From IMG/VR virus record IMGVR_UViG_643348547_000009: a DNA stretch of 15,806 nt; one strand, written 5' to 3'. The position numbers and the translations under genes were made by a program. How positions within the stretch are numbered: position 1 is the stretch's first letter; the number at the start of each line of letters is the position of its first letter. Below the pieces are notes generated by a model that saw only the letters and a list, made by a program, of their open reading frames with translations, was not told the origin of the DNA and did not search any database. The DNA is from a virus. Lineage: Duplodnaviria > Heunggongvirae > Uroviricota > Caudoviricetes. This document shows positions 1 to 15,806 of the stretch, one piece after another.

Positions 1-1461
1 ATGAAAAAATTACTGCGTCTTTTTTTCCCGCTCTCGCTGCGGGTACGTTTTCTGTTGGCAACGGCAGCGGTAGTACTGGTGCTTTCGCTTGCCTACGGAA
101 TGGTCGCGCTGATCGGTTATAGCGTCAGTTTCGATAAAACTACGTTTCGGCTGTTACGTGGCGAGAGCAATCTGTTCTATACCCTTGCGAAGTGGGAAAA
201 CAATAAGTTGCATGTCGAGTTACCCGAAAATATCGACAAGCAAAGCCCCACCATGACGCTAATTTATGATGAGAACGGGCAGCTTTTATGGGCGCAACGT
301 GACGTGCCCTGGCTGATGAAGATGATCCAGCCTGACTGGCTGAAATCGAATGGTTTTCATGAAATTGAAGCGGATGTTAACGATACCAGCCTCTTGCTGA
401 GTGGAGATCATTCGATACAGCAACAGTTGCAGGAAGTGCGGGAAGATGATGACGACGCGGAGATGACCCACTCGGTAGCGGTAAACGTCTACCCGGCAAC
501 ATCGCGGATGCCAAAGTTAACCATTGTGGTGGTGGATACCATTCCGGTGGAGCTAAAAAGTTCCTATATGGTCTGGAGCTGGTTTATCTATGTGCTCTCA
601 GCCAATCTGCTGTTAGTGATCCCGCTGCTGTGGGTCGCCGCCTGGTGGAGTTTACGCCCCATCGAAGCCCTGGCAAAAGAAGTCCGCGAACTGGAAGAAC
701 ATAACCGCGAATTGCTCAATCCTGCCACAACGCGAGAACTGACCAGTCTGGTACGAAACCTGAACCGACTGTTAAAAAGTGAACGCGAACGTTACGACAA
801 ATATCGTACGACGCTCACCGACCTGACCCATAGTCTGAAAACGCCACTGGCGGTGCTGCAAAGTACGCTGCGTTCTCTGCGTAGTGAGAAGATGAGCGTC
901 AGTGATGCTGAGCCGGTAATGCTGGAGCAAATCAGCCGCATTTCACAGCAAATTGGCTACTACCTGCATCGTGCCAGTATGCGCGGCGGGACATTGCTTA
1001 GCCGCGAGCTGCATCCGGTCGCCCCACTGTTGGACAATCTCACCTCGGCGCTGAACAAAGTGTATCAACGCAAAGGGGTCAATATCTCTCTCGATATTTC
1101 GCCAGAGATCAGCTTTGTTGGTGAGCAGAACGATTTTGTCGAGGTGATGGGCAATGTGCTGGATAATGCCTGTAAATATTGCCTCGAGTTTGTCGAAATT
1201 TCTGCAAGGCAAACCGACGAGCATCTCTATATTGTGGTCGAGGATGATGGCCCCGGTATTCCATTAAGCAAGCGAGAGGTCATTTTCGACCGTGGTCAAC
1301 GGGTTGATACTTTACGCCCTGGGCAAGGTGTGGGGCTGGCGGTAGCCCGCGAAATCACCGAGCAATATGAGGGTAAAATCGTCGCCGGAGAGAGCATGCT
1401 GGGCGGTGCGCGGATGGAGGTGATTTTTGGTCGCCAGCATTCTGCGCCGAAAGATGAATAA
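1..1461 (+). CDS. phoQ: Sensor histidine kinase PhoQ of the PhoP/PhoQ two-component system, complete 486 aa
   Basis: ATG at 1, TAA at 1459-1461. Two hydrophobic TM segments flank a periplasmic domain with the acidic cluster EDDDDAEM; H-box [11 protein letters not shown]; ATP-binding G-boxes DDGPGI and GQGVGLAV. Sequence matches E. coli PhoQ as I remember it. Confidence 0.97.
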
Positions 1462-1992: not shown

Positions 1993-2274
1993 TTACGTAC
2001 GCAGTCGTTCCGGCTTCTTCCAGTGGTACGTTATTTTCTCCTTCTCCCGATACATCTCCACGCGGCGACGGTAGGCCAGCAACTCAAGAACTCTGGTTCG
2101 TATGTTGCGCATATCCACGCCATTAAGCTGGATACCATCACGGCGCATCACCTCAGCAACAACACGCGCATAATTTTCGGCTGTCACGCTGTCCGGCTGC
2201 GTGGTCTGTTCGTCAGCCTGCTGGTTGATTCCAGAGACGCGGCGGATTAATCGCAGTATTTCGGCTTCTGTCAT
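1993..2274 (-). CDS. Hypothetical 93 aa protein, last gene of the packaging operon
   Basis: ATG at 2274 with a GAGG Shine-Dalgarno 8 nt upstream; starts 13 nt after the TerL stop; basic C-terminus. I do not recognise the family. Confidence 0.5.
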   Translation of the reverse strand: MTEAEILRLIRRVSGINQQADEQTTQPDSVTAENYARVVAEVMRRDGIQLNGVDMRNIRTRVLELLAYRRRVEMYREKEKITYHWKKPERLRT

Positions 2275-2287
2275 GCTGCTGACCTCA

Positions 2288-3949
2288 TTACACCCCGCTA
2301 AATTCTTCCAGTTTCTGGCGGTGGCTGTCGCTTATATCAAAAGCAAAATCCTCATGCTCTGCCTGAAATGTACCAAACGCCATCAGTGCCGCTACGCTCG
2401 GGTCTATCTTGTTCGGTGATTTTTTCTTGTTCGGCTTGATATTGGCGTTCGCGTCACTCTGCATCACGACGTTACTCATCGACCAGGACAACACCGGATC
2501 GCCACGATGCACAATCACCCTGCGGTTAACAAAAACTTCGAACGATTTCGCCGCCGGACTGAATCTGAGGTAGGTTTGCGGGAACGGCTCCACCTCAAAG
2601 CCTGCCCCCTGTAATTGCGTTCTCAGGTGCGTGGCGTTCCACGTATCGAAGCCCACCAACCTGATATTAAATTTCTCGGCGTCCTGCATGATGTCATCTC
2701 TGATCCGGTCGTAATCAATGCAGTCGCCAGGCGTTGTGCATATCCAGCCCGCTTTAGCCCACTGGCGATAGACAGCGCGATTTTTATTGGCTGGGTTCTG
2801 TAGCTGGAACTCCGGCAGATAATGACGGGAAACCAGCATGATATTTTTACCGACCGGAAAGGCATAGCATACGCTGGAAATATCGCTGGTTGATGATAAG
2901 TCCAGCCCCGCGTAACACTCCTGACCGTGTAAATCTTCCTCCGTGAACGTTCCGGTACACTCAGCCCATGCACCATTACCCATCCACGGGGTAGTCCCCT
3001 GACACCAGATATTAAATCGCTTTGTCATCATCTCCACCCACTGCGACGGAATACCCCGCGCTTTCTGGATGGTTGAGGCCAGTTTTTCACGATCGACGGA
3101 AACATCGATGTTAGGGTTAGCCTTTATCCACATCGCCGGATCATCAACCTCGTTTTCGTCGTCCAGTTCGTAAATCAGTACAAAAATTGAATCGTTGACC
3201 TCTTCGCCGTCCAGGATCTGGCAGCAATAATCATAGTGCTGCTTACAGGCTGAAACGACGTTACTGCCCGATGTGGTAATGGCAAATAACAGCCCTTCGG
3301 GACGTGCGCCCATCCCCAGCTCAAGCGCGGAATAAACGCCGTTATCGGGGTGTAGGTGGTATTCGTCCACGATAGAAAGACTGGGGTTTGTCCCCTCGAT
3401 GGTTGCTGCTTTTGCTGCCAGCGGCTTTAACAGGCTGTTGCTTTTCGGGTGTATCACCTTATGCGCCTGAATATTCACCCGCCTGCGTAACGGTCGGGAT
3501 AAAAGGCACATCTGACGCGCATCATCAAAGACGATCCGCGCCTGGTCACGGCTCACCGCTGCGGTGTAGATATCCTGCTGACCGTTCTCCATAATCAGAA
3601 ACCAGTTAGCCAGAATCGCGGCGGTCGTGGATTTCGCATTTTTGCGCGGCACTTCGATAAAGGCGCTCGTGTATTTGCGCCGTCCGGTGGCCTTAACCTT
3701 AAAGCCGAGGATGCACGCAAAGGCGAACTGCTGCCACGGCTCCAGCTCAATGGGTCTGCCACGCATCGGTCCTTTTACGTGCGGGCACACCCTGGAAAAG
3801 GCAATAAACCGCTCCACAACCTCACGATCGAACGTGTAAAGGGGGCTTTTAAGGTCCGAAAAGTACCGTTTAACAGCCTGTTTTAACCGTTTACAGGCCG
3901 GAATTTTGCCCGTTTTTACGTCTTCTGCGTACTTATTCCAGGCGGTCAA
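2288..3949 (-). CDS. Phage terminase large subunit (553 aa)
   Basis: Walker-A-like PRKNAKST in the N-terminal ATPase region and an acidic nuclease-type C-terminal half; follows TerS directly. Start is TTG at 3949 with a GAGGA Shine-Dalgarno 5 nt upstream and overlaps the TerS 3' end by 17 nt; there is no in-frame ATG nearby. Confidence 0.88.
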   Translation of the reverse strand: MTAWNKYAEDVKTGKIPACKRLKQAVKRYFSDLKSPLYTFDREVVERFIAFSRVCPHVKGPMRGRPIELEPWQQFAFACILGFKVKATGRRKYTSAFIEVPRKNAKSTTAAILANWFLIMENGQQDIYTAAVSRDQARIVFDDARQMCLLSRPLRRRVNIQAHKVIHPKSNSLLKPLAAKAATIEGTNPSLSIVDEYHLHPDNGVYSALELGMGARPEGLLFAITTSGSNVVSACKQHYDYCCQILDGEEVNDSIFVLIYELDDENEVDDPAMWIKANPNIDVSVDREKLASTIQKARGIPSQWVEMMTKRFNIWCQGTTPWMGNGAWAECTGTFTEEDLHGQECYAGLDLSSTSDISSVCYAFPVGKNIMLVSRHYLPEFQLQNPANKNRAVYRQWAKAGWICTTPGDCIDYDRIRDDIMQDAEKFNIRLVGFDTWNATHLRTQLQGAGFEVEPFPQTYLRFSPAAKSFEVFVNRRVIVHRGDPVLSWSMSNVVMQSDANANIKPNKKKSPNKIDPSVAALMAFGTFQAEHEDFAFDISDSHRQKLEEFSGV

Positions 3950-4289
3950 GCTCGTCCTCTTCTTCTGTTTCCGGTGGATTTTTACGGCGGCTTATCGGGT
4001 CAAAACCGAGCAAGGAGGCCATTTTTATCATCACTCTTTCAGCGTCGGATTTTGCGCTTAATGCGGGGTTTCTGCTCTCGCCGCCCTGACTGTTAACAAT
4101 GCTGAACCCGCGCGCCGCAAGGTCTGCAACGGCTTTCCGGTAAATGGAGTAGTTGACGCAATACAGTTCCAGATTGCTCCAGTCGGCGGGGGTCAGGTCT
4201 CCCCGTTCCGCAAGCTGCCGCGATTTTTCCCGCCACTGCTTCACGGCGATATCATCCAGGTAGGCGGGGGCTTTCGGTGGTCTTGCCAT
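3933..4289 (-). CDS. Phage terminase small subunit, P27-like (118 aa)
   Basis: Small protein immediately upstream of and overlapping TerL, with an acidic C-terminal tail (ETEEEDELDRLE). The sequence resembles P27-family TerS as I remember it. Confidence 0.75.
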   Translation of the reverse strand: MARPPKAPAYLDDIAVKQWREKSRQLAERGDLTPADWSNLELYCVNYSIYRKAVADLAARGFSIVNSQGGESRNPALSAKSDAERVMIKMASLLGFDPISRRKNPPETEEEDELDRLE

Positions 4290-4340
4290 GCTTATTTTTC
4301 GTCAGATTATTTTTCAAAAAATTCCCGTGCATAAAAATTT

Positions 4341-4400
4341 GGGGAGGCGGTCGGTGCCCGGCGGGGTCGGGTTTGTCCTGAAAACGCCCCCCACCCCGTC
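4341..4400. other. Candidate cos / packaging recognition site in the HNH-TerS intergenic region
   Basis: GC-rich tract ggggaggcggtcggtgcccggcggggtcgggtttgtcctgaaaacgccccccaccccgtc, with a G-rich left end and a C-rich right end in inverted symmetry, lying between HNH and TerS where HNH-dependent cos sites usually sit. The first 10 nt (GGGGAGGCGG) resemble the start of the P2-type cohesive end GGCGAGGCGG, which I recall from memory. Confidence 0.35.
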
Positions 4401-4577
4401 ATACAGCCTCATCAGCGATTGCGGAAACATTCCATAACCTCGCGGTCACGGTCGGTTAATCGCTTCGCTGTGATGCGTTCTGCGCGTCCTGACGCTTTAT
4501 CTTTATGCCCTGTTTCCTGTGTCTTCCATGCGTCACGCTGCCTTATAAGTCCACGGATAAGGCGGTTTTGTTCCCGC

Positions 4578-5018
4578 TCATTCATCAGCGTCATACATCC
4601 AGTTATTGCGGTTAGCGGCCCGTTCTTCCTCTTCACGAAATCCACCTGCGGCACGCTTGCTTTTTGTTGCCGGATCAAGCCATTTCGTTTTCTGGTTATG
4701 GCACGCCTGACACAATGGTTGATGGTTCCATTCGGGCCAGAAGAGAACATCATCACCGCCATCGATGGGGATAATGTGATCCACCACCACGGCGGGCGTA
4801 TATATCCCCTTCTCAAGGCATCGCACGCATAACGGGTTTTTACTCAGATACATGGCGCGGTATTTGTCCCACTGTCTGGAGTACCCACGCGCGCGGCGGT
4901 GTCCTCGTCTGGCATCCTCTGCACGCCATGCCGCCCGCCTGTGCTCCTCACACTTGCCGGACTTCACGCGCCTGTTACAGCCTGGTTCTGTGCATCGTCT
5001 TAATGGTTGCCACGGCAT
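4578..5018 (-). CDS. HNH endonuclease, phage packaging-associated (146 aa)
   Basis: HNH-type motifs CVRCLEKG, VDHIIPIDGG and CQACHNQK; sits directly upstream of TerS as in HK97-like HNH/terminase systems. ATG at 5018 overlaps the stop of the upstream gene (ATGA). Confidence 0.85.
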   Translation of the reverse strand: MPWQPLRRCTEPGCNRRVKSGKCEEHRRAAWRAEDARRGHRRARGYSRQWDKYRAMYLSKNPLCVRCLEKGIYTPAVVVDHIIPIDGGDDVLFWPEWNHQPLCQACHNQKTKWLDPATKSKRAAGGFREEEERAANRNNWMYDADE

Positions 5019-5314: not shown

Positions 5315-5649
5315 CGTGGCGCACCTGTTTTACAAAGAATTTCCAGACGAGTCCTTTTACCGTCGGGAACGGGGGGGCCAACAATATCAAGCTCATTGCC
5401 GGAATAAGCCCCCGTGAGTACCCGTATCCGGCTGGATGCCGTAACATCCACACGAAAACGGATCCAGACTCTTACGGTTGCCTGTGCCGTTTCTGCACCT
5501 GCGGTCATGCGTTCCCGTCCGCTGATCCCTTTCACCTCCGCCCATACGGTGGCAACATCCTCCCATGTGCTTTTCATTGCACCGGAAGGGAGGCGGGAAA
5601 GTTTCGCGCTCATGATGACAATGCGATCCCTCATGCTCCCCGCTCTCAT
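5311..5649 (-). CDS. Phage head closure / head-tail joining protein (112 aa)
   Basis: Size, position between portal and connector, and resemblance to the head closure protein family; ATGA overlap with the portal stop. Confidence 0.68.
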   Translation of the reverse strand: MRAGSMRDRIVIMSAKLSRLPSGAMKSTWEDVATVWAEVKGISGRERMTAGAETAQATVRVWIRFRVDVTASSRIRVLTGAYSGNELDIVGPPVPDGKRTRLEILCKTGAPR

Positions 5650-6860
5650 GATTTGCCCTCTTTATCATCCTTTACTTCGATCTCCTGTTTCCAGGCCTGG
5701 CTGAACTCATCGCCACCATCACGCGGCGATAATCCCTCACGTTCGCGGGCTTCGTTCGGGCACATAACGCCGGACTTGATGCCGCGTTCATAGGTGGCAA
5801 AGCGTTCGCCAGGTGTGGCCCGTAACAGATCCGCGCTGTCAAACTCCACCTGATACCGGATACCAGGTACAGGCGAGGCCACCAGCAAAGCATTTTTTAT
5901 CTGCTGCTCAAAGTTCGCCAGCCACGGGCGCATCGTCATGGTGAGAAATGCGCGGCTTGCCTCGCTGAAATTGCTGTAGGTGCTGTTGCTGTATTCCTGC
6001 AGAAAAATCGGCGAGACGTTGAACATTCGGGCGATGTCTTCAATGGTGAAGCGACGGGAGGCCAGCCATTCAGCATCCTGGTTACTCATGCCAAGCTGCT
6101 GATAGCTCATACCCCCTTCAAGAATGGGCGTTTTTCCGGCGTTTCTGGCTCCTTTGTAGCGTTCCAGTGCGGCTAATGCCTGTTTGCCCTTCACGCCGTC
6201 CAGCCATTCGCCTGACGTGATAACCCCTGCTGCCATCATGCCATCACGCATCACGCTCGCGCCGTGGCGCTGTTGGGCCAGCCCAAGCCCCAGCGATTCG
6301 CGGCAGATGGTCACAGGTGAGCGCCCCATAAAGCCGTCATCCGTGGAGTAACGAAGGTGGAGAACCTCCCACGGTAAATAGTTGCGGGTGTTTCCGCTGT
6401 AAGCGTCAGTGATGCGGTAACGCCAGTTATGTTCCCCTGTCTGCTCAACATTCACCGACTGCGGCGGGTAAGGGTGCAAAGCCACTGGAAAACCATCACG
6501 CCCCCACTGAATCACCGCATAAGCATTACCGTTTAACAGGCAGTGGCGGACCATCATTCGCTTAAACTGATAGGGCGTCTGCCACGCGTTCGGGCGCTCG
6601 TTGAGGATATGATCGACCGGATGAGAATCAAGCCACTCGCGGGCCTCCTTCCCCTTCTCATTGCGTACCAGGTACAGGTAGCATGGCATAGTAGCCACCG
6701 CCTCAGAGATGACCGTGACGGCGTTCATGACGGCGGGGAGTGATTCCGCTGTCCCCGATGATACGTACTCACCCGCCCCCGTGTTCGATGTGCCAGCCAG
6801 CGCCATAAATTCATCCAGCGTCATGCTGCGATGCTCTTGTTTTCGTCTGAAAGGCCACAT
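5646..6860 (-). CDS. Phage portal protein, HK97 family (404 aa)
   Basis: About 400 aa protein adjacent to the prohead protease with an acidic C-terminal tail; GGGGG Shine-Dalgarno about 6 nt upstream of the ATG at 6860. Confidence 0.88.
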   Translation of the reverse strand: MWPFRRKQEHRSMTLDEFMALAGTSNTGAGEYVSSGTAESLPAVMNAVTVISEAVATMPCYLYLVRNEKGKEAREWLDSHPVDHILNERPNAWQTPYQFKRMMVRHCLLNGNAYAVIQWGRDGFPVALHPYPPQSVNVEQTGEHNWRYRITDAYSGNTRNYLPWEVLHLRYSTDDGFMGRSPVTICRESLGLGLAQQRHGASVMRDGMMAAGVITSGEWLDGVKGKQALAALERYKGARNAGKTPILEGGMSYQQLGMSNQDAEWLASRRFTIEDIARMFNVSPIFLQEYSNSTYSNFSEASRAFLTMTMRPWLANFEQQIKNALLVASPVPGIRYQVEFDSADLLRATPGERFATYERGIKSGVMCPNEAREREGLSPRDGGDEFSQAWKQEIEVKDDKEGKS

Positions 6861-6861
6861 A

Positions 6862-7437
6862 TCACACCCCCGCTAAATCCGCCCACCAGCGGCGATTATC
6901 CGCGCGTGGCATTTTTTCGGGGTGCTGCTCATACAGGGAACGGCGGGCCAGATCCACGCCGGAATCAGGGTAAGCCGGTACGGATGTAACGGTAATTTCG
7001 TACAGTTCCGCCACCAGCACGGTGCGCACGCATGGATCTGTTGTGGTATCCCATACATCCTTACGGGAACGAAAGCCAAAGCTCATCCCCGAGATATCAC
7101 CACGCTTAACCAGTTCGATAACGTCCCGCCCTGTACTGGTATCCGGTGGGGTCAGTTCAAAGCGTAACCCTGTTTCATCCTCTTCCAGTTTCAGCGTACC
7201 GGAACGGGTACGCCCCAGTAACATGCTGTGGTCGTGCTCATACAGGCCGCGAACGTCATTACCCGCCGCCAGCCACTCACTGAACGCCCCCCGCTGGAAT
7301 TTTTCGTAAAACTCACCCCATAGCAGATCAGAAAGGTTATTCCAGCGAACAACGTAACCCGTCAGCGTACTGGCTCCGCTGGTGGTGATTTCTGATGACC
7401 GGATTTCCATGCTCTTTTTCATATTTTTTTCACCCAT
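6862..7437 (-). CDS. HK97-family prohead protease (191 aa; start may instead be the ATG at 7422)
   Basis: Conserved protease-family segments LYEHDHS, GRTRSGTL and GMSFGF. The ATG at 7437 has no good Shine-Dalgarno; the in-frame ATG at 7422 has GGTGA about 9 nt upstream. Confidence 0.85.
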   Translation of the reverse strand: MGEKNMKKSMEIRSSEITTSGASTLTGYVVRWNNLSDLLWGEFYEKFQRGAFSEWLAAGNDVRGLYEHDHSMLLGRTRSGTLKLEEDETGLRFELTPPDTSTGRDVIELVKRGDISGMSFGFRSRKDVWDTTTDPCVRTVLVAELYEITVTSVPAYPDSGVDLARRSLYEQHPEKMPRADNRRWWADLAGV

Positions 7438-7472: not shown

Positions 7473-8645
7473 TTAACCGCCGTTTTTCATCTCGAGGACT
7501 TTTATCGCGCGGGAGTCAACAACCCCGCCGCCGATGTATTTGTCCGTGTGTACCTTGTAGAAACCCGGCTCTGTAATGTTGTCCGGTCGGGTACGAATAC
7601 CCGTTTCATGGTCAACGATGAAATAACCGCGCTTAAAGTCACCGACAGCCAGCGGCGTTTTGCCTTTGCCGATGTCCGGCATACTTTCCAGGTAATAAAC
7701 AGGACGGCCCAGCAATGTGTCAGGTGCGCCCTCTTTGAGGCTGTCACGCCATACGTAATCACCGCTCTGGTTTTTCAGCTTCTGCAATGCTGCCGCTGTG
7801 CTCGAGTTCATCACCCATACGGCGTTCTTACGGTATTTCGCTTTCAGCTTGTAGAGGATGTCGATCAGTTCGTCCGCTGTAATGGCGGCTTCGGCTGCTG
7901 CTACCATTTTTTCAATGGTGCCAAAGGCGCGGGTTTTGTCGTTGGTTAGATCTCGGTTGTAACTCAGGAAACCTTTCGGCTTGCCAGTACCATTACCATT
8001 TACAAAATCATCTTCTTCGGTCGTGGCGAACGTATCGGCGATTTCAGACGATAACCAGCCCAGTACGTCCACCTCTGAAAAATCCAGAATTTCCTGTGTG
8101 GTTTTCGGGTAGGCATAGATCGGGTTAAGTTTGATGCTTACGCGCTCAACTTTCGGGGTGTTGGTTTCGTTACGCTTGCTGCCCTCGGTTCCATAATTTA
8201 CAGCCGCGCCACCTGTGGAAACCAGTTTCTGATATTCGTTTGATTTCGCCGTTTTCACGGTCGCAATCATTCGCATGACGCTTTCATCACTCAGTAACCG
8301 CATGACCTCGCGATCAAGCTCAGGGATAACGGTATAGCCACCGTCCTTGCCGCTGTTGCTAGTGGTGGATAATGAGCGAACGTCACCCGTTACGATGTAA
8401 TTGCGAAGTTCTGCGGGGTCAGTGGTCTGGCTGGCTTTACCTGGCTTGCTGCGCTCTTCGTCTGCAATGGCTTCAAGGCGGGAAATGTCTTTATCGAGGG
8501 ATTCAGCTTTAGCGCGTAATTCGTCAAATTTTGCGCCCTCAGCATCGTTAAGACTGCGGTTTTCTTTTTCCGCGTTCTCCAGCATGTCGCGCATCTGATT
8601 TTTAATGGCGGTTTTCTGCTGGCGTAATTCGATTATTCTCGGCAT
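7473..8645 (-). CDS. Major capsid protein, HK97 fold (390 aa)
   Basis: N-terminal coiled-coil scaffold-like delta domain (ELRQQKTAIKNQMRDMLENAEKE...), about 390 aa, adjacent to the prohead protease; ATG at 8645. Confidence 0.92.
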   Translation of the reverse strand: MPRIIELRQQKTAIKNQMRDMLENAEKENRSLNDAEGAKFDELRAKAESLDKDISRLEAIADEERSKPGKASQTTDPAELRNYIVTGDVRSLSTTSNSGKDGGYTVIPELDREVMRLLSDESVMRMIATVKTAKSNEYQKLVSTGGAAVNYGTEGSKRNETNTPKVERVSIKLNPIYAYPKTTQEILDFSEVDVLGWLSSEIADTFATTEEDDFVNGNGTGKPKGFLSYNRDLTNDKTRAFGTIEKMVAAAEAAITADELIDILYKLKAKYRKNAVWVMNSSTAAALQKLKNQSGDYVWRDSLKEGAPDTLLGRPVYYLESMPDIGKGKTPLAVGDFKRGYFIVDHETGIRTRPDNITEPGFYKVHTDKYIGGGVVDSRAIKVLEMKNGG

Positions 8646-9879: not shown

Positions 9880-9928
9880 TTTTATTTTTACCCCCTCGTT
9901 TAAAAAGTTTTGAGTTGTGCCTCCCCTT

Positions 9929-10154
9929 GTCTACCTTATCTACCTTACTGGCTCTCATGCCAGTAATGGCGCGGCTTTCAGCGGGGTAGAGTGCTTTTAT
10001 CCACTATCTACCCCGTATCTACCTCCCTGTCTGATTCAGGTAAAATCAGGTAGAGAGGGTAGATAGTAGGTAGACAGTGAAAAAAGGCTGTCTACCTAAG
10101 TTAATATACTGAATTAAATGTATTTTTCTTTACTCAGGTAGACAGGGTAGACAG
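9929..10154. repeat. Candidate replication origin: about 11 iterons with core GGTAGA / TCTACC in both orientations, plus an AT-rich stretch
   Basis: TCTACC at 9931, 9940, 10007, 10018 and 10091; GGTAGA at 9985, 10049, 10058, 10069, 10138 and 10147. AT-rich segment at about 10100-10130. Located immediately 3' of the primase gene. Confidence 0.65.
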
Positions 10155-10167
10155 CCATTGCAAAAAA

Positions 10168-11916
10168 TTATAAAAACGCGTCGCAATCGTCTGTTGTTAT
10201 TGCGTTAGTCTGCGTTACTCCCTTAACTTTCCGCGTAATATATTCATGTCCGTAAACTTTCGCGGCTGGCTTCATAGCCTTGCCAAAGTCATTTACGTTT
10301 AGCGGTTTGCTCCTGCCTGCGTATGCCATAAACGCCAGATAGACGCGGTAAAGGCTGTTTCTGGTCGTGTACTTCACTGAATCGCCACCGCCACCCATCA
10401 TCAGGCCGCGCGCTTCCTCCAGAAAATTCAGGAACTGGCAAAACTCAATAACCGGATCCGTCTGTTGCTTTATTGCCAGTGCTTCATCACCGTCACGCTG
10501 TTCCAGTAGTAAAGCCCGTGCCTTCTCAGGGTCGGTAAAGTTCGCCAGCAAGCGGCGGATAATGACAGGGATTTCAGCCGCGATCTTTTCCGGTAGCTCC
10601 CTGTCTTTTTCTGCCTCGCTTACGATATTGTCGAAGCGGAAAATAACCCGACGACGTGACACGCCTCCGGCCCGTTCGGTGAATATCATCGGGTTGTTAT
10701 TGGTCGCCAGCACCACCGCCCTGATTACCGTAGTGAAACGCTTTTCATATTTCGGGTTGATTTCCACGGGGTCGCCGCCCGTGATTTTCTTGATGCCCGT
10801 GCCTTCGCCTGTATATTTCGGCTGGTCTGCCAGGACGATAAGACGACTCCCGACAACCTGCGCACGCCCACCAGCATCATCAAGCGATGTCATTTCCGCG
10901 CTTACCGTGTTTTGTTTCCCCGCTAAAAGGCTGGCGATGTGGGTGAATGTACTTTTGCCGCTCCCGCCGTCTCCGGTGGCCTCAATAAACATCTGCCAGT
11001 CGTACCGGTTCGCCATAATCATGTACAGCGCGGCACATATACGCATCATCTTGCGCGAGTCTTTTCCGGCTGCGTGCTCAAGCCATTTATGAAAGTTTGG
11101 CGCGTTATCGCGGATGTTCTCCCCTGGTGCTGGTGGCGTGTACTCAATGCCGTTGTTCGTGGTGATCCAGTTCTCCGGCGTGTGCGGGGAAAATTCCCCC
11201 GTTTTCAGGTCAAGCGCACCATTGGCGAACGGCAGCAAATCGCCGGACGGCTCGCCCATTGGTTCGGCAATAACTTTTAACGCTTCCACGGCGTTATTGA
11301 TTACGCGCTTGCTGAAAGTGGCCCTGTGCTCTGAATAGATCGCCACCATTTCGCGGCTAAGTTCCATTGTGCTGACCGGACACCATACCCCGCCGCGCCA
11401 TACGTGAACGATTTCACTTTCCGGATGCACACAAACGCCATCAAATCGACCAGCAAGCATCTGTGCGCGCTCACTGTCTGCCATTTGTGCCAGTTGCGTA
11501 TTTTTCTGCTCCGGCATGGTAAGCCCTGCGGCAATATTTTCACGCTCAGCATTCAGATAGCGCCGCCAGTTTTCACACTTCTGGACGTGCATTCCTTCGG
11601 GGTAAAAATTTGCGTCCTGAATATCTGCCGCCGCCAGCTTCTGACCAATCTTTTTGGTCTCCACCAAATCCAGTTCTCCGGCCTGGTACAGCCTTACGCG
11701 TTTTTTTCCATCCGGAACAATTTTCAGTGCATCAAGTTCGGCAAGCTGATTTGGCCCAAGCCACACAGGCGGCACATTATCGCCGGATGCGGGGCCATCC
11801 TGCTCCTGCCATTGTTTCGCGTGCGACCAGGCATCACTACCCGCGAAAATAATTACCTCTGTGTCTTTGTGTTTTATTCCGCGTGGCTGTTTTTTTACGT
11901 TCGGTGCCAGTTTCAT
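10168..11916 (-). CDS. Phage/plasmid primase-helicase, P4 family (582 aa)
   Basis: Walker A motif GDGGSGKST in the C-terminal NTPase domain and a primase-like N-terminal half; ATG at 11916 with an AGGGG Shine-Dalgarno; followed by the iteron region. Confidence 0.88.
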   Translation of the reverse strand: MKLAPNVKKQPRGIKHKDTEVIIFAGSDAWSHAKQWQEQDGPASGDNVPPVWLGPNQLAELDALKIVPDGKKRVRLYQAGELDLVETKKIGQKLAAADIQDANFYPEGMHVQKCENWRRYLNAERENIAAGLTMPEQKNTQLAQMADSERAQMLAGRFDGVCVHPESEIVHVWRGGVWCPVSTMELSREMVAIYSEHRATFSKRVINNAVEALKVIAEPMGEPSGDLLPFANGALDLKTGEFSPHTPENWITTNNGIEYTPPAPGENIRDNAPNFHKWLEHAAGKDSRKMMRICAALYMIMANRYDWQMFIEATGDGGSGKSTFTHIASLLAGKQNTVSAEMTSLDDAGGRAQVVGSRLIVLADQPKYTGEGTGIKKITGGDPVEINPKYEKRFTTVIRAVVLATNNNPMIFTERAGGVSRRRVIFRFDNIVSEAEKDRELPEKIAAEIPVIIRRLLANFTDPEKARALLLEQRDGDEALAIKQQTDPVIEFCQFLNFLEEARGLMMGGGGDSVKYTTRNSLYRVYLAFMAYAGRSKPLNVNDFGKAMKPAAKVYGHEYITRKVKGVTQTNAITTDDCDAFL

Positions 11917-12212
11917 TTTTTACCCCTGAATACGTTAAGCATCTTTTTTATTTCCTGAATATTGGCGCGTGCTTTCTCCCTGCTGGTGGGCACGTTACGC
12001 GGTACGGCCTGCACCAGAGAAAAATCACGATCGAACTGATAAACAGGCATCACGCAATCATATTCGTAGCCTTCACGACGGTAGGTTACGCGCCGTTCCT
12101 CCACGCCCTTAATCATTACCATGCCGCCATATTTATCGCGGTAAATATCGCCGTTCATAAATTCAGGACGAGCGGGGCCGCTGGCAGTAACGCCAGAATT
12201 TTTATTTTTCAT
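11913..12212 (-). CDS. Small hypothetical protein (99 aa), possibly DUF4222-like (tentative)
   Basis: ATG at 12212; stop overlaps the primase start (ATGA). The RDKYGGMVMIKGVEERRVTYRREGYEYDCVMP segment resembles small proteins I recall upstream of P4-family primases. Confidence 0.5.
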   Translation of the reverse strand: MKNKNSGVTASGPARPEFMNGDIYRDKYGGMVMIKGVEERRVTYRREGYEYDCVMPVYQFDRDFSLVQAVPRNVPTSREKARANIQEIKKMLNVFRGKK

Positions 12213-12217
12213 GTTTT

Positions 12218-12445
12218 TTATTCTCCGGTGTGCTGCGCTTTATTATTCTCGTGAATTGCCATCACTGTATTTAATTCATTAATAACAGGCGTTAATAGCG
12301 TACGCACGGCAGAAAACATCATTGAATCAGATTCATCGCCACTTTCCGGCACATCAATTAACTTAAGTAGTAATGCGTCCATTTCCTTTGCGCGGATTAA
12401 TGCGTTTTCAGAATGAACAAGAACATCAAAGGGTATTTTATGCAT
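12218..12445 (-). CDS. Hypothetical 75 aa protein
   Basis: ATG at 12445 preceded by AGGGGGGGA; start overlaps the last codons of the upstream Icd-like ORF (ATGCATAA). The longer 109 aa reading in the ORF track has no Shine-Dalgarno. Confidence 0.5.
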   Translation of the reverse strand: MHKIPFDVLVHSENALIRAKEMDALLLKLIDVPESGDESDSMMFSAVRTLLTPVINELNTVMAIHENNKAQHTGE

Positions 12446-12902
12446 GACTCCCCCCCTGGCGAATACGGGCGACAAAAATAAGATGTGCGTGCGGCAGCTG
12501 TGCACGTGCTTCGCGCTCAGTGGCAGCGGTAACGGTGAATATTGCAATACTGTCTGTCAGGCACTGCATAAAGCGCCAGACAAAATAAGGGCGTGCGAAT
12601 ACAGCCATGTGAAAGGCTCCCAGATGAATTTTAAGGAGTCTCGCTACTACGCTGCTAAACATGGTGGCGAGACGTAACAGGGTTAGCAGACTGGTCATCT
12701 GGAAACCAGCGAGCACAAAGGCTCCCCCGTTACGCCCCGCCATAATGCGGGTATGGGTAGGTTTACGGACACAAAAAAACCGCTTATCGGATGTGGGCGG
12801 CTGTCCGCCAGATGTATTCAGGCTGCTAAACCCGGTCGCCATGTGGGCGACGGGGGAAGCATACAGCCCCGTGATAATTTTTTGCAAGCGGTTTTTACGC
12901 AT
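12438..12902 (-). CDS. Icd-like (P4 cell-division-inhibitor family) domain protein, copy 1; full ORF is 154 aa, and an internal start at 12608 would give 56 aa
   Basis: C-terminal WRF...ATEREARAQ...FVARIRQGGSHA is paralogous to the C-terminus of copy 2. The ATG at 12902 has an AGGGG Shine-Dalgarno and overlaps the copy 2 stop; the ATG at 12608 has a GGGAG Shine-Dalgarno. Confidence 0.45.
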   Translation of the reverse strand: MRKNRLQKIITGLYASPVAHMATGFSSLNTSGGQPPTSDKRFFCVRKPTHTRIMAGRNGGAFVLAGFQMTSLLTLLRLATMFSSVVARLLKIHLGAFHMAVFARPYFVWRFMQCLTDSIAIFTVTAATEREARAQLPHAHLIFVARIRQGGSHA

Positions 12903-13098
12903 GATGTGACCCCTGACGAATACGGGCGGCGAATACCATCACGCAGCCAGCCGGGGATTGCTGGCGTGCCTCCTGTTCGCTGGTGGCCTCAATGGTAATC
13001 ACGCGCGGTTGTGCCGTGCTCAGGGCGATAAAACGCCAGATGTATTTATTCAGGTTGTGCGAATCCCGCCCTTGCGGGTGTGTGGTATGATTTAACAT
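12895..13098 (-). CDS. Icd-like small protein, copy 2 (67 aa)
   Basis: ATG at 13098 with GAGG 5 nt upstream; ...KYIWRF...ATSEQEARQQ...FAARIRQGSHHA. The long upstream in-frame extension (353 aa ORF) is Cys/Arg-rich and antisense to plus-strand genes, so it is treated as non-coding. Confidence 0.5.
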   Translation of the reverse strand: MLNHTTHPQGRDSHNLNKYIWRFIALSTAQPRVITIEATSEQEARQQSPAGCVMVFAARIRQGSHHA

Positions 13099-14576: not shown

Positions 14577-15806
14577 TTATTTTCTTCTGGCTACTGGTAG
14601 CGTGGTTACGTTTTCATGTGTTCCCGCCAGTATCCCTAACCGCTCCGTCCACATATCCAGCGCATTGCGTTTAGCATCCAGATAACGGGAATGATTATAA
14701 ACTCGCTGCATTCCTGGCATCTGGTGGCCTGTAAGCTGCTCCACGACGTGAGGATCCACGCCTAAATCGCTCAGCATCGTTGTAAAGGTGCGCCGGATGT
14801 CATGTAGTGACCAGTGAGGGTGATTTAGCCTCCTGTGCGCTAATCTGCCGTACTGCGACACGCTTGTTTCCTGTTTCACTTCCCCCAGCAATAAGCCCGT
14901 GTGCCTGTTCTGCTCCACCAGCTGCGTGACGAACGGCAGTATTGCTTCCGGTATGGGCCGGAATATTGCCACCTTCGTTTTGCTGTGTTCTTTCGGCACG
15001 GTCCAGAGCATTTCGGTAAAATCCCACTCGCTGATCTCCGATAACCTCAGTTCTACCGTCCGGCATCCGAACACAATCAGGAGGCGGATTAACGCGATGT
15101 AGTAGGGGGAGAATATTTTTTTGTCCAGTGCCTGCAATAATTCGCCCAGTTCTTTGGTGCTTAAGACACGCTCGCTTATATCCGGTTTTTTCCCAACGTC
15201 CGCCACACTCATATCATCAAGAACGTTGCTGATTGCATAGCGCCGCCTCCGGCAGAACTTAAGCGCCTGTTTGCACGTCTGTAGCAAGAATCCGGCAGTA
15301 ACAGGCGTTCGCTTTGCCACCTGGTCAAAACAGGCCAGCCAGTGCCGTAGCTCGCATTTATCCAGCGGCATAGCACCAATGTGCTGTATTACGTGATTAT
15401 TAAGGCGCTTTTTCAGGGCGGCATAATCCACGCGGTTTTCCTTTGCGTACGACTCAAGCCAGTAGGTGAGCGCATCGCCAACCGTTACCGGCTTTAACGC
15501 TTCCTGTACGGTGTAATTAAGCTCATGACGTGGATTTTTCCCCTCTGCCAGCCATGCGCGACACTGGGCGGCTTTTTCCCTGGCTGATTTCAGGCTCAGA
15601 TCAGGATAATTTCCCAGCTTAATGCGTTCCGGTGGTGCCCCCCTTCCCGTTCCGGCCCTGTAAGTGAAATACCAGGTTAAAAGGCCACTGGTTGAATGCC
15701 TGACGCTCAGGTTTCCACCGTCATTAAGAAAGGCTGTTTTTTGGGCGGGTGTGCCGTTGATTTTCCTCAGCTGTGTATCGCTCAGTTTGTTAAGTGCTCT
15801 GCTCAT
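14577..15806 (-). CDS. int: Site-specific tyrosine integrase, P4-type (409 aa)
   Basis: ATG is formed by the last three bases of the window. N-terminal arm-binding-like domain, and a C-terminal catalytic region (...HDIRRTFTT...YNHSRYLD) consistent with the tyrosine recombinase R/H/R/Y arrangement. Confidence 0.93.
   Translation of the reverse strand: MSRALNKLSDTQLRKINGTPAQKTAFLNDGGNLSVRHSTSGLLTWYFTYRAGTGRGAPPERIKLGNYPDLSLKSAREKAAQCRAWLAEGKNPRHELNYTVQEALKPVTVGDALTYWLESYAKENRVDYAALKKRLNNHVIQHIGAMPLDKCELRHWLACFDQVAKRTPVTAGFLLQTCKQALKFCRRRRYAISNVLDDMSVADVGKKPDISERVLSTKELGELLQALDKKIFSPYYIALIRLLIVFGCRTVELRLSEISEWDFTEMLWTVPKEHSKTKVAIFRPIPEAILPFVTQLVEQNRHTGLLLGEVKQETSVSQYGRLAHRRLNHPHWSLHDIRRTFTTMLSDLGVDPHVVEQLTGHQMPGMQRVYNHSRYLDAKRNALDMWTERLGILAGTHENVTTLPVARRK

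Follow-up and report, generated by a model that had tools for sequence, protein, structure and literature searches.

Capsid-forming PICIs (cf-PICIs) have small capsids of their own that receive only island DNA. Those of the EcCIEDL933 type make their own capsids and have their DNA packaged by their own TerS, TerL and HNH proteins, and packaging by the island and by its helper phage is mutually exclusive (10.1101/2022.09.08.507074). Cos-type packaging of these elements is already established, and the packaged DNA of the Klebsiella island KpCIDSM30104 was reported to form concatemers via cohesive ends (10.1101/2025.02.11.637232), while we found no paper that gives either the position or the sequence of a cf-PICI cos. 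Mapped sites are available for two phages. In SfI, comparison of run-off sequences of virion DNA with the prophage revealed a 10-nt gap, TGCCCGCCCC; the HNH gene lies upstream of this cos, and the packaging genes were reported to be identical to those of SfV (PMC3636060). The SfI record ends exactly with TGCCCGCCCC. In HK97, the termini have 10-nt 3' overhangs, and TerS binds at +15..+29, where it contacts T16, the C:G pair at 21 and a 9-bp A-tract, with the same numbering in the papers as in the record (PMC9410871, PMC11331095). The HNH protein of the HK97 system, gp74, stimulates cutting, and its TerS is gp1.

The stretch of viral DNA analyzed here (15,806 nt, referred to below as the window) starts within phoQ (1-1461, plus strand) and has the gene content of an E. 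coli cf-PICI of the EcCIEDL933 type adjoining that gene. The island is about 14-15 kb long, and all of its genes are on the minus strand. The cf-PICI gene set is complete, including the integrase (14577-15806), replication genes, capsid, protease, portal, connectors, HNH, TerS and TerL; the island has neither tail nor lysis genes. Among these genes are a D5-type primase (10168-11916), SSB and PerC, the major capsid protein (7473-8645), the prohead protease (6862-7437), the portal (5646-6860), and head closure and connector proteins. The packaging genes comprise an HNH endonuclease of the terminase-associated type (4578-5018; PF01844, E = 1.2e-8; phrog_144; PDB 5H0M, E = 2.3e-15), a small terminase TerS of the P27/Terminase_4 family (3933-4289; PF05119, E = 1.3e-23; TIGR01558) and a large terminase TerL of the HK97 type (2288-3949; PF03354 and PF20441). 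TerL matches the HK97 TerL structure 6Z6D over nearly its full length (residues 46-540, E = 4e-41). TerS is 36% identical to SfV TerS over 90 amino acids and has no sequence relationship to HK97 gp1; it had no match in PDB, so that the HK97 TerS-DNA structure is not transferable by homology.

A small conserved gene of 60 amino acids (4412-4594, minus strand; RefSeq CDS WP_000174068.1) sits between HNH and the candidate cos, overlapping the HNH stop by 17 nt and matching phrog_3173 over its full length (E = 7.5e-37). The order on the coding strand is thus HNH, the 60-aa ORF, the spacer, TerS and TerL. The C-terminus of the 60-aa product (...RDRExxECFRNR) is kept in many Enterobacterales relatives, including other genera such as Klebsiella, and a different sequence takes the place of this gene in Xenorhabdus, Aeromonas and Serratia. 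The 501 bp around the site are present in 488 of 5,426 complete E. coli genomes, and this HNH-TerS stretch is 99% identical to the phoQ-adjoining island of O157:H7 strains. The island as a whole is a mosaic: while the tested packaging stretch is 99% identical to O157:H7, the replication module (9900-12300 in the window, 17700-20300 in O157:H7) has a D5-type primase here and a RepA-family helicase there. Elsewhere in the island, two tandem minus-strand genes (12441-12620 and 12898-13077) encode Icd-like cell-division inhibitors (NF033153, E = 1.8e-14 and 1.1e-19) with 43% mutual identity; the long ORFs of 154 and 353 aa listed at these positions are probably over-extended. Between terL and phoQ, the island ends with a conserved gene of 93 amino acids (1993-2274, minus strand; phrog_1561, E = 4e-55).

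The preliminary description of this locus had placed a candidate cos in a 288-bp spacer between HNH and TerS. The two genes do bound a gap of 288 nt (4290-4577), but not all of it is spacer, because the 60-aa gene covers 4412-4594 and leaves 122 non-coding nucleotides (4290-4411). The GC-rich tract described there (4341-4400) has 75% GC versus 51% for the whole window, which is the highest value for any 60-nt window and is equalled only at about 4884-4888; it abuts a stretch of 25% GC (4290-4340). Its two ends read as quoted, GGGGAGGCGG at 4341-4350 and CGCCCCCCACCCC at 4385-4397, and their inverted symmetry is real if imperfect, the reverse complement of 4385-4397 (GGGGTGGGGGGCG) matching 4341-4353 (GGGGAGGCGGTCG) at 10 of 13 positions. 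The interval is also a known position for cos, since HNH, cos and TerS follow each other in HK97, SfV, SfI and ST64B. The island belongs to a known type of E. coli phage satellite, and the GC-rich stretch is very probably its cos site. We consider it likely that the whole of 4290-4411 constitutes the predicted cf-PICI cos, recognized and cut by the TerS, TerL and HNH of the island itself.

For the analysis of conservation, we collected relatives from more than 20 genera (with TerS 68-84% identical) and further copies from IMG/VR; information content per column was calculated from 31 relatives, and the wider sets comprise 228 loci and 134 sequence variants. Absence of the tract from otherwise conserved relatives, which had been named as evidence against a cos, was not observed, as every intact relative has the tract (228 loci). 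In the direction of the genes, the 228 loci share one order of blocks: a G-box, TTTTCAGGACAAA, a 13-nt variable block, a C-rich box and an AT-rich block. The G-box (4385-4397), which reads GGGGTGGGGGGCG on the gene strand, lies at -54..-42 from the predicted cut; its family form is GGGGTGGGGG(NNN), and its core GGTGGGGG is nearly invariant both in the 31 relatives (1.66 bits per column) and in the 134 variants. The C-rich right end noted earlier is this upstream G-box seen on the other strand. The adjacent conserved block TTTTCAGGACAAA (4372-4384; 1.31 bits per column, with GAC(A/G)A most conserved) has the same position as TCAAATCT in SfI and HK97. The next block (4359-4371; CCCGACCCCGCCG in the window) is a hypervariable spacer with a fixed length of 13 nt, in which the information content falls to 0.47 bits per column. 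It occurs in 62 versions among the 228 loci, with a change of length in a few cases only, and 46% of its bases are C on the gene strand. A conserved GGCAC (4354-4358; 1.66 bits per column), which aligns with GGAC(T) in SfI and SfV, stands directly upstream of the predicted 10-nt 3' cohesive end (4344-4353), which reads CGACCGCCTC on the gene strand and GAGGCGGTCG on the plus strand and has the family consensus CRMMYGCCYC. The G-rich left end of the preliminary description would correspond to this predicted cohesive end. Downstream of it, at +1..+40, is a block of AT-rich sequence, a GC island and an AT-tract (4304-4343; CCCAAATTTTTATGCACGGGAATTTTTTGAAAAATAATCT), composed of CTCAAATTTTTA, CGCACGG, two variable positions and ATTTTTTTGAAAATAAAAC, in which CTCAAATTTTTA is almost invariant in the 134 variants. 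This block is the predicted TerS-binding, cosB-like region.

The conserved non-coding blocks reach 1.4-1.7 bits per column, compared with 1.66, 1.74 and 0.86 bits for the first, second and third codon positions of terS. Since these blocks match the first two positions and exceed the third, the tract is under strong selection as DNA. The 13-nt block varies even more than the synonymous positions (0.47 versus 0.86 bits). In two decayed copies of the island, found in Shigella and Erwinia tracheiphila, part of the tract has been lost together with the start of terS. In the island of Shigella flexneri SFBU1023 (CP182556.1), two CCCCGCC repeats mark a deletion that has taken out the C-box together with the AT block and approximately the first seven codons of terS, so that both cos and terS of this copy are dead. 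We considered the endpoint of this deletion as a cos-related break and rejected it, as the deletion is explained by the 7-nt microhomology (CCCCGCC).

Complementarity between the G-box and the C-box is kept in 27 of 27 relatives, and this raises the question of whether the two arms form a hairpin or cruciform whose structure, rather than sequence, is functional, for example as a replication or recombination signal. A variant of this explanation pairs the G-box with the variable block, which is rich in C (46%); in the window, these two can pair at 90% over 10 nt. The substitutions among relatives speak against structure, as no compensatory changes were found, the Klebsiella and Pluralibacter versions pair poorly, and shuffling the variable block did not worsen its pairing with the G-box (mean z = -0.56). 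We regard a structural role of the arms as very unlikely.

Anchored on the cut, the layout of the island tract lines up without gaps with the cos sites of SfI and HK97, and this comparison, which the preliminary description had proposed for HK97, supports its candidate cos. Positions 4344-4353 of the window align with the SfI end TGCCCGCCCC and with the 10 nt that close the HK97 record, so that a C-rich 10-mer occupies -10..-1 in the anchored sequences. In the window, the Klebsiella island and SfI alike, the G-box spans -54..-42; in AbIPP1 it lies within 1 nt of this offset, and in HK97 at -56..-43. Downstream of the cut, the sequences coincide in T7-T11, in ACG at +12..+14 and in an A/T tract from about +22. 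When we scanned registers with the 31 island sequences, the mean number of matches peaked at shift 0, with 40.0 and 43.2 of 93 positions for SfI and HK97, respectively; the combined score was 83.1 at this shift versus 74.5 for the next best. The comparison of SfI with HK97 also peaks at shift 0, while the window alone, scanned against HK97, leaves an ambiguity of 2 nt in the register.

Two further sites bridge the phage and island sequences. ST64B reads GCCCGCCCC|CTCGAATTTTTA and has a near-identical G-box at the SfI spacing, and AbIPP1 has a G-box followed by 30 nt and then by CGCCCCCTAA|AGTACATTTTTACG; in the downstream block, ST64B and AbIPP1 share ...CTCGAATTTTTA... and ...ATTTTTACG.... 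The island has in common with SfI, SfV, SfII, SfIV and ST64B the order HNH-cos-TerS-TerL and a TerS of the P27 family. As in the SfI-type cos, the G-box at -54..-42 and the C-rich 10-mer at -10..-1 are followed by a T-tract and a GC island, and ST64B even has GCCCGCCCC|CTCGAATTTTTA in common with the island. In contrast to the SfI type, the sequence between the two boxes is unrelated and the island has a second long T-tract downstream; the element itself is a satellite of roughly 15 kb without tail genes, whereas the SfI group consists of phages of 37-40 kb. With HK97, the island shares a homologous TerL, an HNH partner, and the G-box, cut and GC-step/A-tract at the same offsets, whereas the TerS proteins are unrelated in sequence and both the cohesive end and the TerS site differ. 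Every feature of the HK97/SfV type for which a test was made was found at the locus, namely HNH upstream and terS-terL downstream, an HK97-type TerL, a P27 TerS and the co-linear layout. By every testable criterion, the site would belong to the HK97/SfV class of HNH-dependent cos, for which fixed 10-nt 3' termini and protein binding are predicted. An alternative cut at the start of the SfV record, which would put the overhang in the variable block, was rejected since the mapped SfI end TGCCCGCCCC is located 7 nt inside that record.

The alignment predicts nicks on the minus strand between 4344 and 4343 and on the plus strand between 4353 and 4354, within about 2 nt. We infer these exact positions by homology, the cut being transferred from phages whose TerS is either 36% identical (SfV, representing SfI) or unrelated (HK97). 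Because the cohesive end is 4344-4353, the predicted cut falls at the boundary between GC-rich and AT-rich sequence and not in the middle of the tract. For the overhang, both the 3' polarity and the length are taken from SfI and HK97 by assumption. By analogy with HK97 biochemistry, TerS is predicted to bind within 4304-4343, where a GC step followed by an A-tract is found at the same offset, and cutting would need both TerL and HNH. In the model that we propose, TerS would bind the downstream block after excision and replication of the island, and TerL together with HNH would make staggered nicks at 4344/4343 on the gene strand and at 4353/4354 on the other strand. The C-rich 10-mer 4344-4353 would thereby become a 10-nt 3' cohesive end, and packaging would start on the terS side and traverse the element as far as the next cos.

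DNA derived from particles provides a further view of the site. The record LR881103 (vB_KppS-Ant) is a 16.5-kb linear contig from a lysate of K. pneumoniae DSM 30104, produced from a Nextera XT library by SPAdes assembly with no re-ordering described (PMC8006926). Its gene content is that of a cf-PICI, and the source strain carries KpCIDSM30104. The first base of the contig lies 22 nt ahead of terS and its last just past the G-box; 69 nt that the chromosomal copy has at -31..+38 from the predicted cut are missing. In the cf-PICI part of PQ569648, positions -73..+61 around the predicted cut are missing. Two particle-DNA assemblies of Klebsiella relatives thus break across the predicted site, symmetrically around the cut. 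Because the terminal tens of bases of linear molecules are lost in tagmentation libraries, fixed ends at the predicted cut would be expected to give breaks centered on it. These breaks could alternatively reflect low coverage of a region with extreme GC and AT content rather than physical ends. A pattern scan of IMG/VR yielded many additional copies of the site, none of which lay at a contig end, and a contig search with TerS returned long chromosomal contigs only.

Some annotations of these two records deserve comment. The vB_KppS-Ant contig is listed in GenBank as an 'Escherichia phage' and treated in its paper as a filamentous ssDNA prophage (PMC8006926). By gene content it is a cf-PICI, probably KpCIDSM30104. 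The 765-aa ORF after its terL is annotated as a tape measure protein, which seems doubtful for an island without tail genes. The 106.5-kb 'complete genome' of Klebsiella phage P12620-1 (PQ569648.1) consists in its last ~16 kb (90.6-106.5 kb) of a cf-PICI whose junction with unrelated sequence falls precisely on the terS start codon, and this looks like a chimeric assembly.

The same data bear on the mode of packaging. Recognition sites close to TerS are also known in pac systems, and under headful packaging the tract would be a pac site or irrelevant. The vB_KppS-Ant contig, however, is of unit length, linear and not permuted, with ends that flank the spacer; TerL is of the HK97 type, an HNH partner gene is present, and cohesive ends were reported for a related cf-PICI (10.1101/2025.02.11.637232). 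Headful packaging is thus extremely unlikely, and cohesive-end packaging from the predicted cos is the preferred reading.

The spacer might instead serve mainly the expression of terS and terL, as a promoter, anti-terminator target, attenuator or terminator, or translational leader, with the packaging signal located elsewhere. An AT-rich block does lie directly upstream of terS, and a role in gene expression is conceivable for the bases that vary least, those of CTCAAATTTTTA and of the G-box. The G-box and the C-box could also pair, with a T-run following, in a stem of 9 pairs predicted by RNAalifold; this stem, however, has zero covariation and encloses a loop of 37 nt. Scanning for promoters and terminators yielded neither a sigma-70-like promoter on the gene strand nor any terminator-like site, and no Rfam match was obtained even at a permissive threshold. 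An expression element would also have to account for the same blocks at identical offsets around the mapped SfI and HK97 cuts and for the break of particle-derived contigs at the site. We judge this explanation very unlikely and retain a cos as the probable function of the spacer.

An element-specific cos, as the preliminary description suggested, would explain packaging that does not depend on the helper terminase. The helper published for EcCIEDL933, HK106, carries the HK97 cos essentially unchanged, and this differs from the island site in its cohesive end (CGCCGCCAAA versus CGACCGCCTC, 4 of 10 bases identical) as well as in its TerS site, where about 6 of 15 bases match. The HK97/HK106 cos core is absent from the window. 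The island and HK106 sites share one design in different sequence, which fits the mutually exclusive packaging of cf-PICI and helper.

The tract could also be a mimic of a helper cos of the P2, lambda or HK97 type, through which a helper terminase packages the island. Precedents exist, as helper-like cos sites are carried by P4, by cos SaPIs and by Rpp PICIs (10.1101/2022.09.08.507074), and the left end of the tract had been likened to a P2-type cohesive end. As in P2 and P4, the sequence starts G-rich, and over the first 10 bases GGGGAGGCGG agrees with the P2 end at 9. The likeness does not extend further: only 12 of 19 bases agree overall (4341-4359), the 19-nt P2 end GGCGAGGCGGGGAAAGCAC has no match with up to 3 mismatches anywhere in the window, and P2 and P4 have 19-nt 5' ends and another type of terminase. 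We attribute the P2 resemblance to chance. The lambda cosN GGGCGGCGACCT is absent from the spacer, and its only matches in the window, at 632-643 and 10769-10780, are at chance level. The second of these, in the primase gene on the minus strand, reads GGGCGGCGACCC and has 11 of the 12 bases of the lambda cosN cohesive end; it is coding sequence without a cosB-like context and is probably fortuitous (we estimate ~0.1 such match to be expected at no more than one mismatch). Mimicry of a helper is further at odds with the TerS, TerL and HNH genes of the island and with packaging that is independent of the helper terminase (10.1101/2022.09.08.507074). On this evidence we consider it most improbable, and an island-specific cos remains the favored interpretation.

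Other satellites and phages offer instructive comparisons with such a cos. P4 borrows the cos of its helper, whereas the island has its own. The cos SaPIs of Staphylococcus (SaPIbov5, with helpers phi12 and phiSLT) resemble it as satellites whose cos is served by an HNH-dependent terminase; SaPIbov5, set apart here on its published description, copies the cos and uses the terminase of the helper, whereas the island supplies both its terminase and a distinct cos. The arrangement also recalls cosQ-cosN-cosB of lambda, where the nick site is flanked upstream by an accessory site and downstream by a TerS-binding region next to the terminase genes. This analogy is functional only, since lambda has 12-nt 5' ends, a gpNu1/gpA terminase and no HNH.

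The existence and location of the cos are what a specialist would expect, and our result is a useful refinement rather than a surprise. Only the conserved offset of the G-box and the hypervariable 13-nt spacer are mildly unexpected. In aligned sequences, the G-box offset of about -54..-42 appears fixed in HK97, SfI/ST64B, AbIPP1 and the cf-PICI sites at 228 loci. We propose the G-box as an accessory cos subsite, which may be cosQ-like or a docking site for the nuclease complex. Much more tentatively, and with doubt prevailing, it might represent a so far undescribed second recognition subsite common to HNH-dependent 3'-cos terminases. If so, it could, for example, signal termination in the manner of cosQ or be the place where the HNH/TerL nuclease docks. 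The partial inverted symmetry between the G-box and the cohesive end would then reflect a two-fold nuclease complex, and the 13-nt block between them would be either a fast-evolving spacer or a specificity element against cross-packaging between island and helper.

For the biology of cf-PICIs, the predicted cos would help to explain why the island and its helpers with an HK106/HK97 cos do not cross-package. The predictions at the level of single bases (the cohesive end, the TerS block and the G-box) provide targets for mutagenesis and for the construction of cos plasmids that cf-PICIs can package. The offsets shared by HK97, SfI and the islands suggest that the HK97 system may be used directly as a model of the island terminase.
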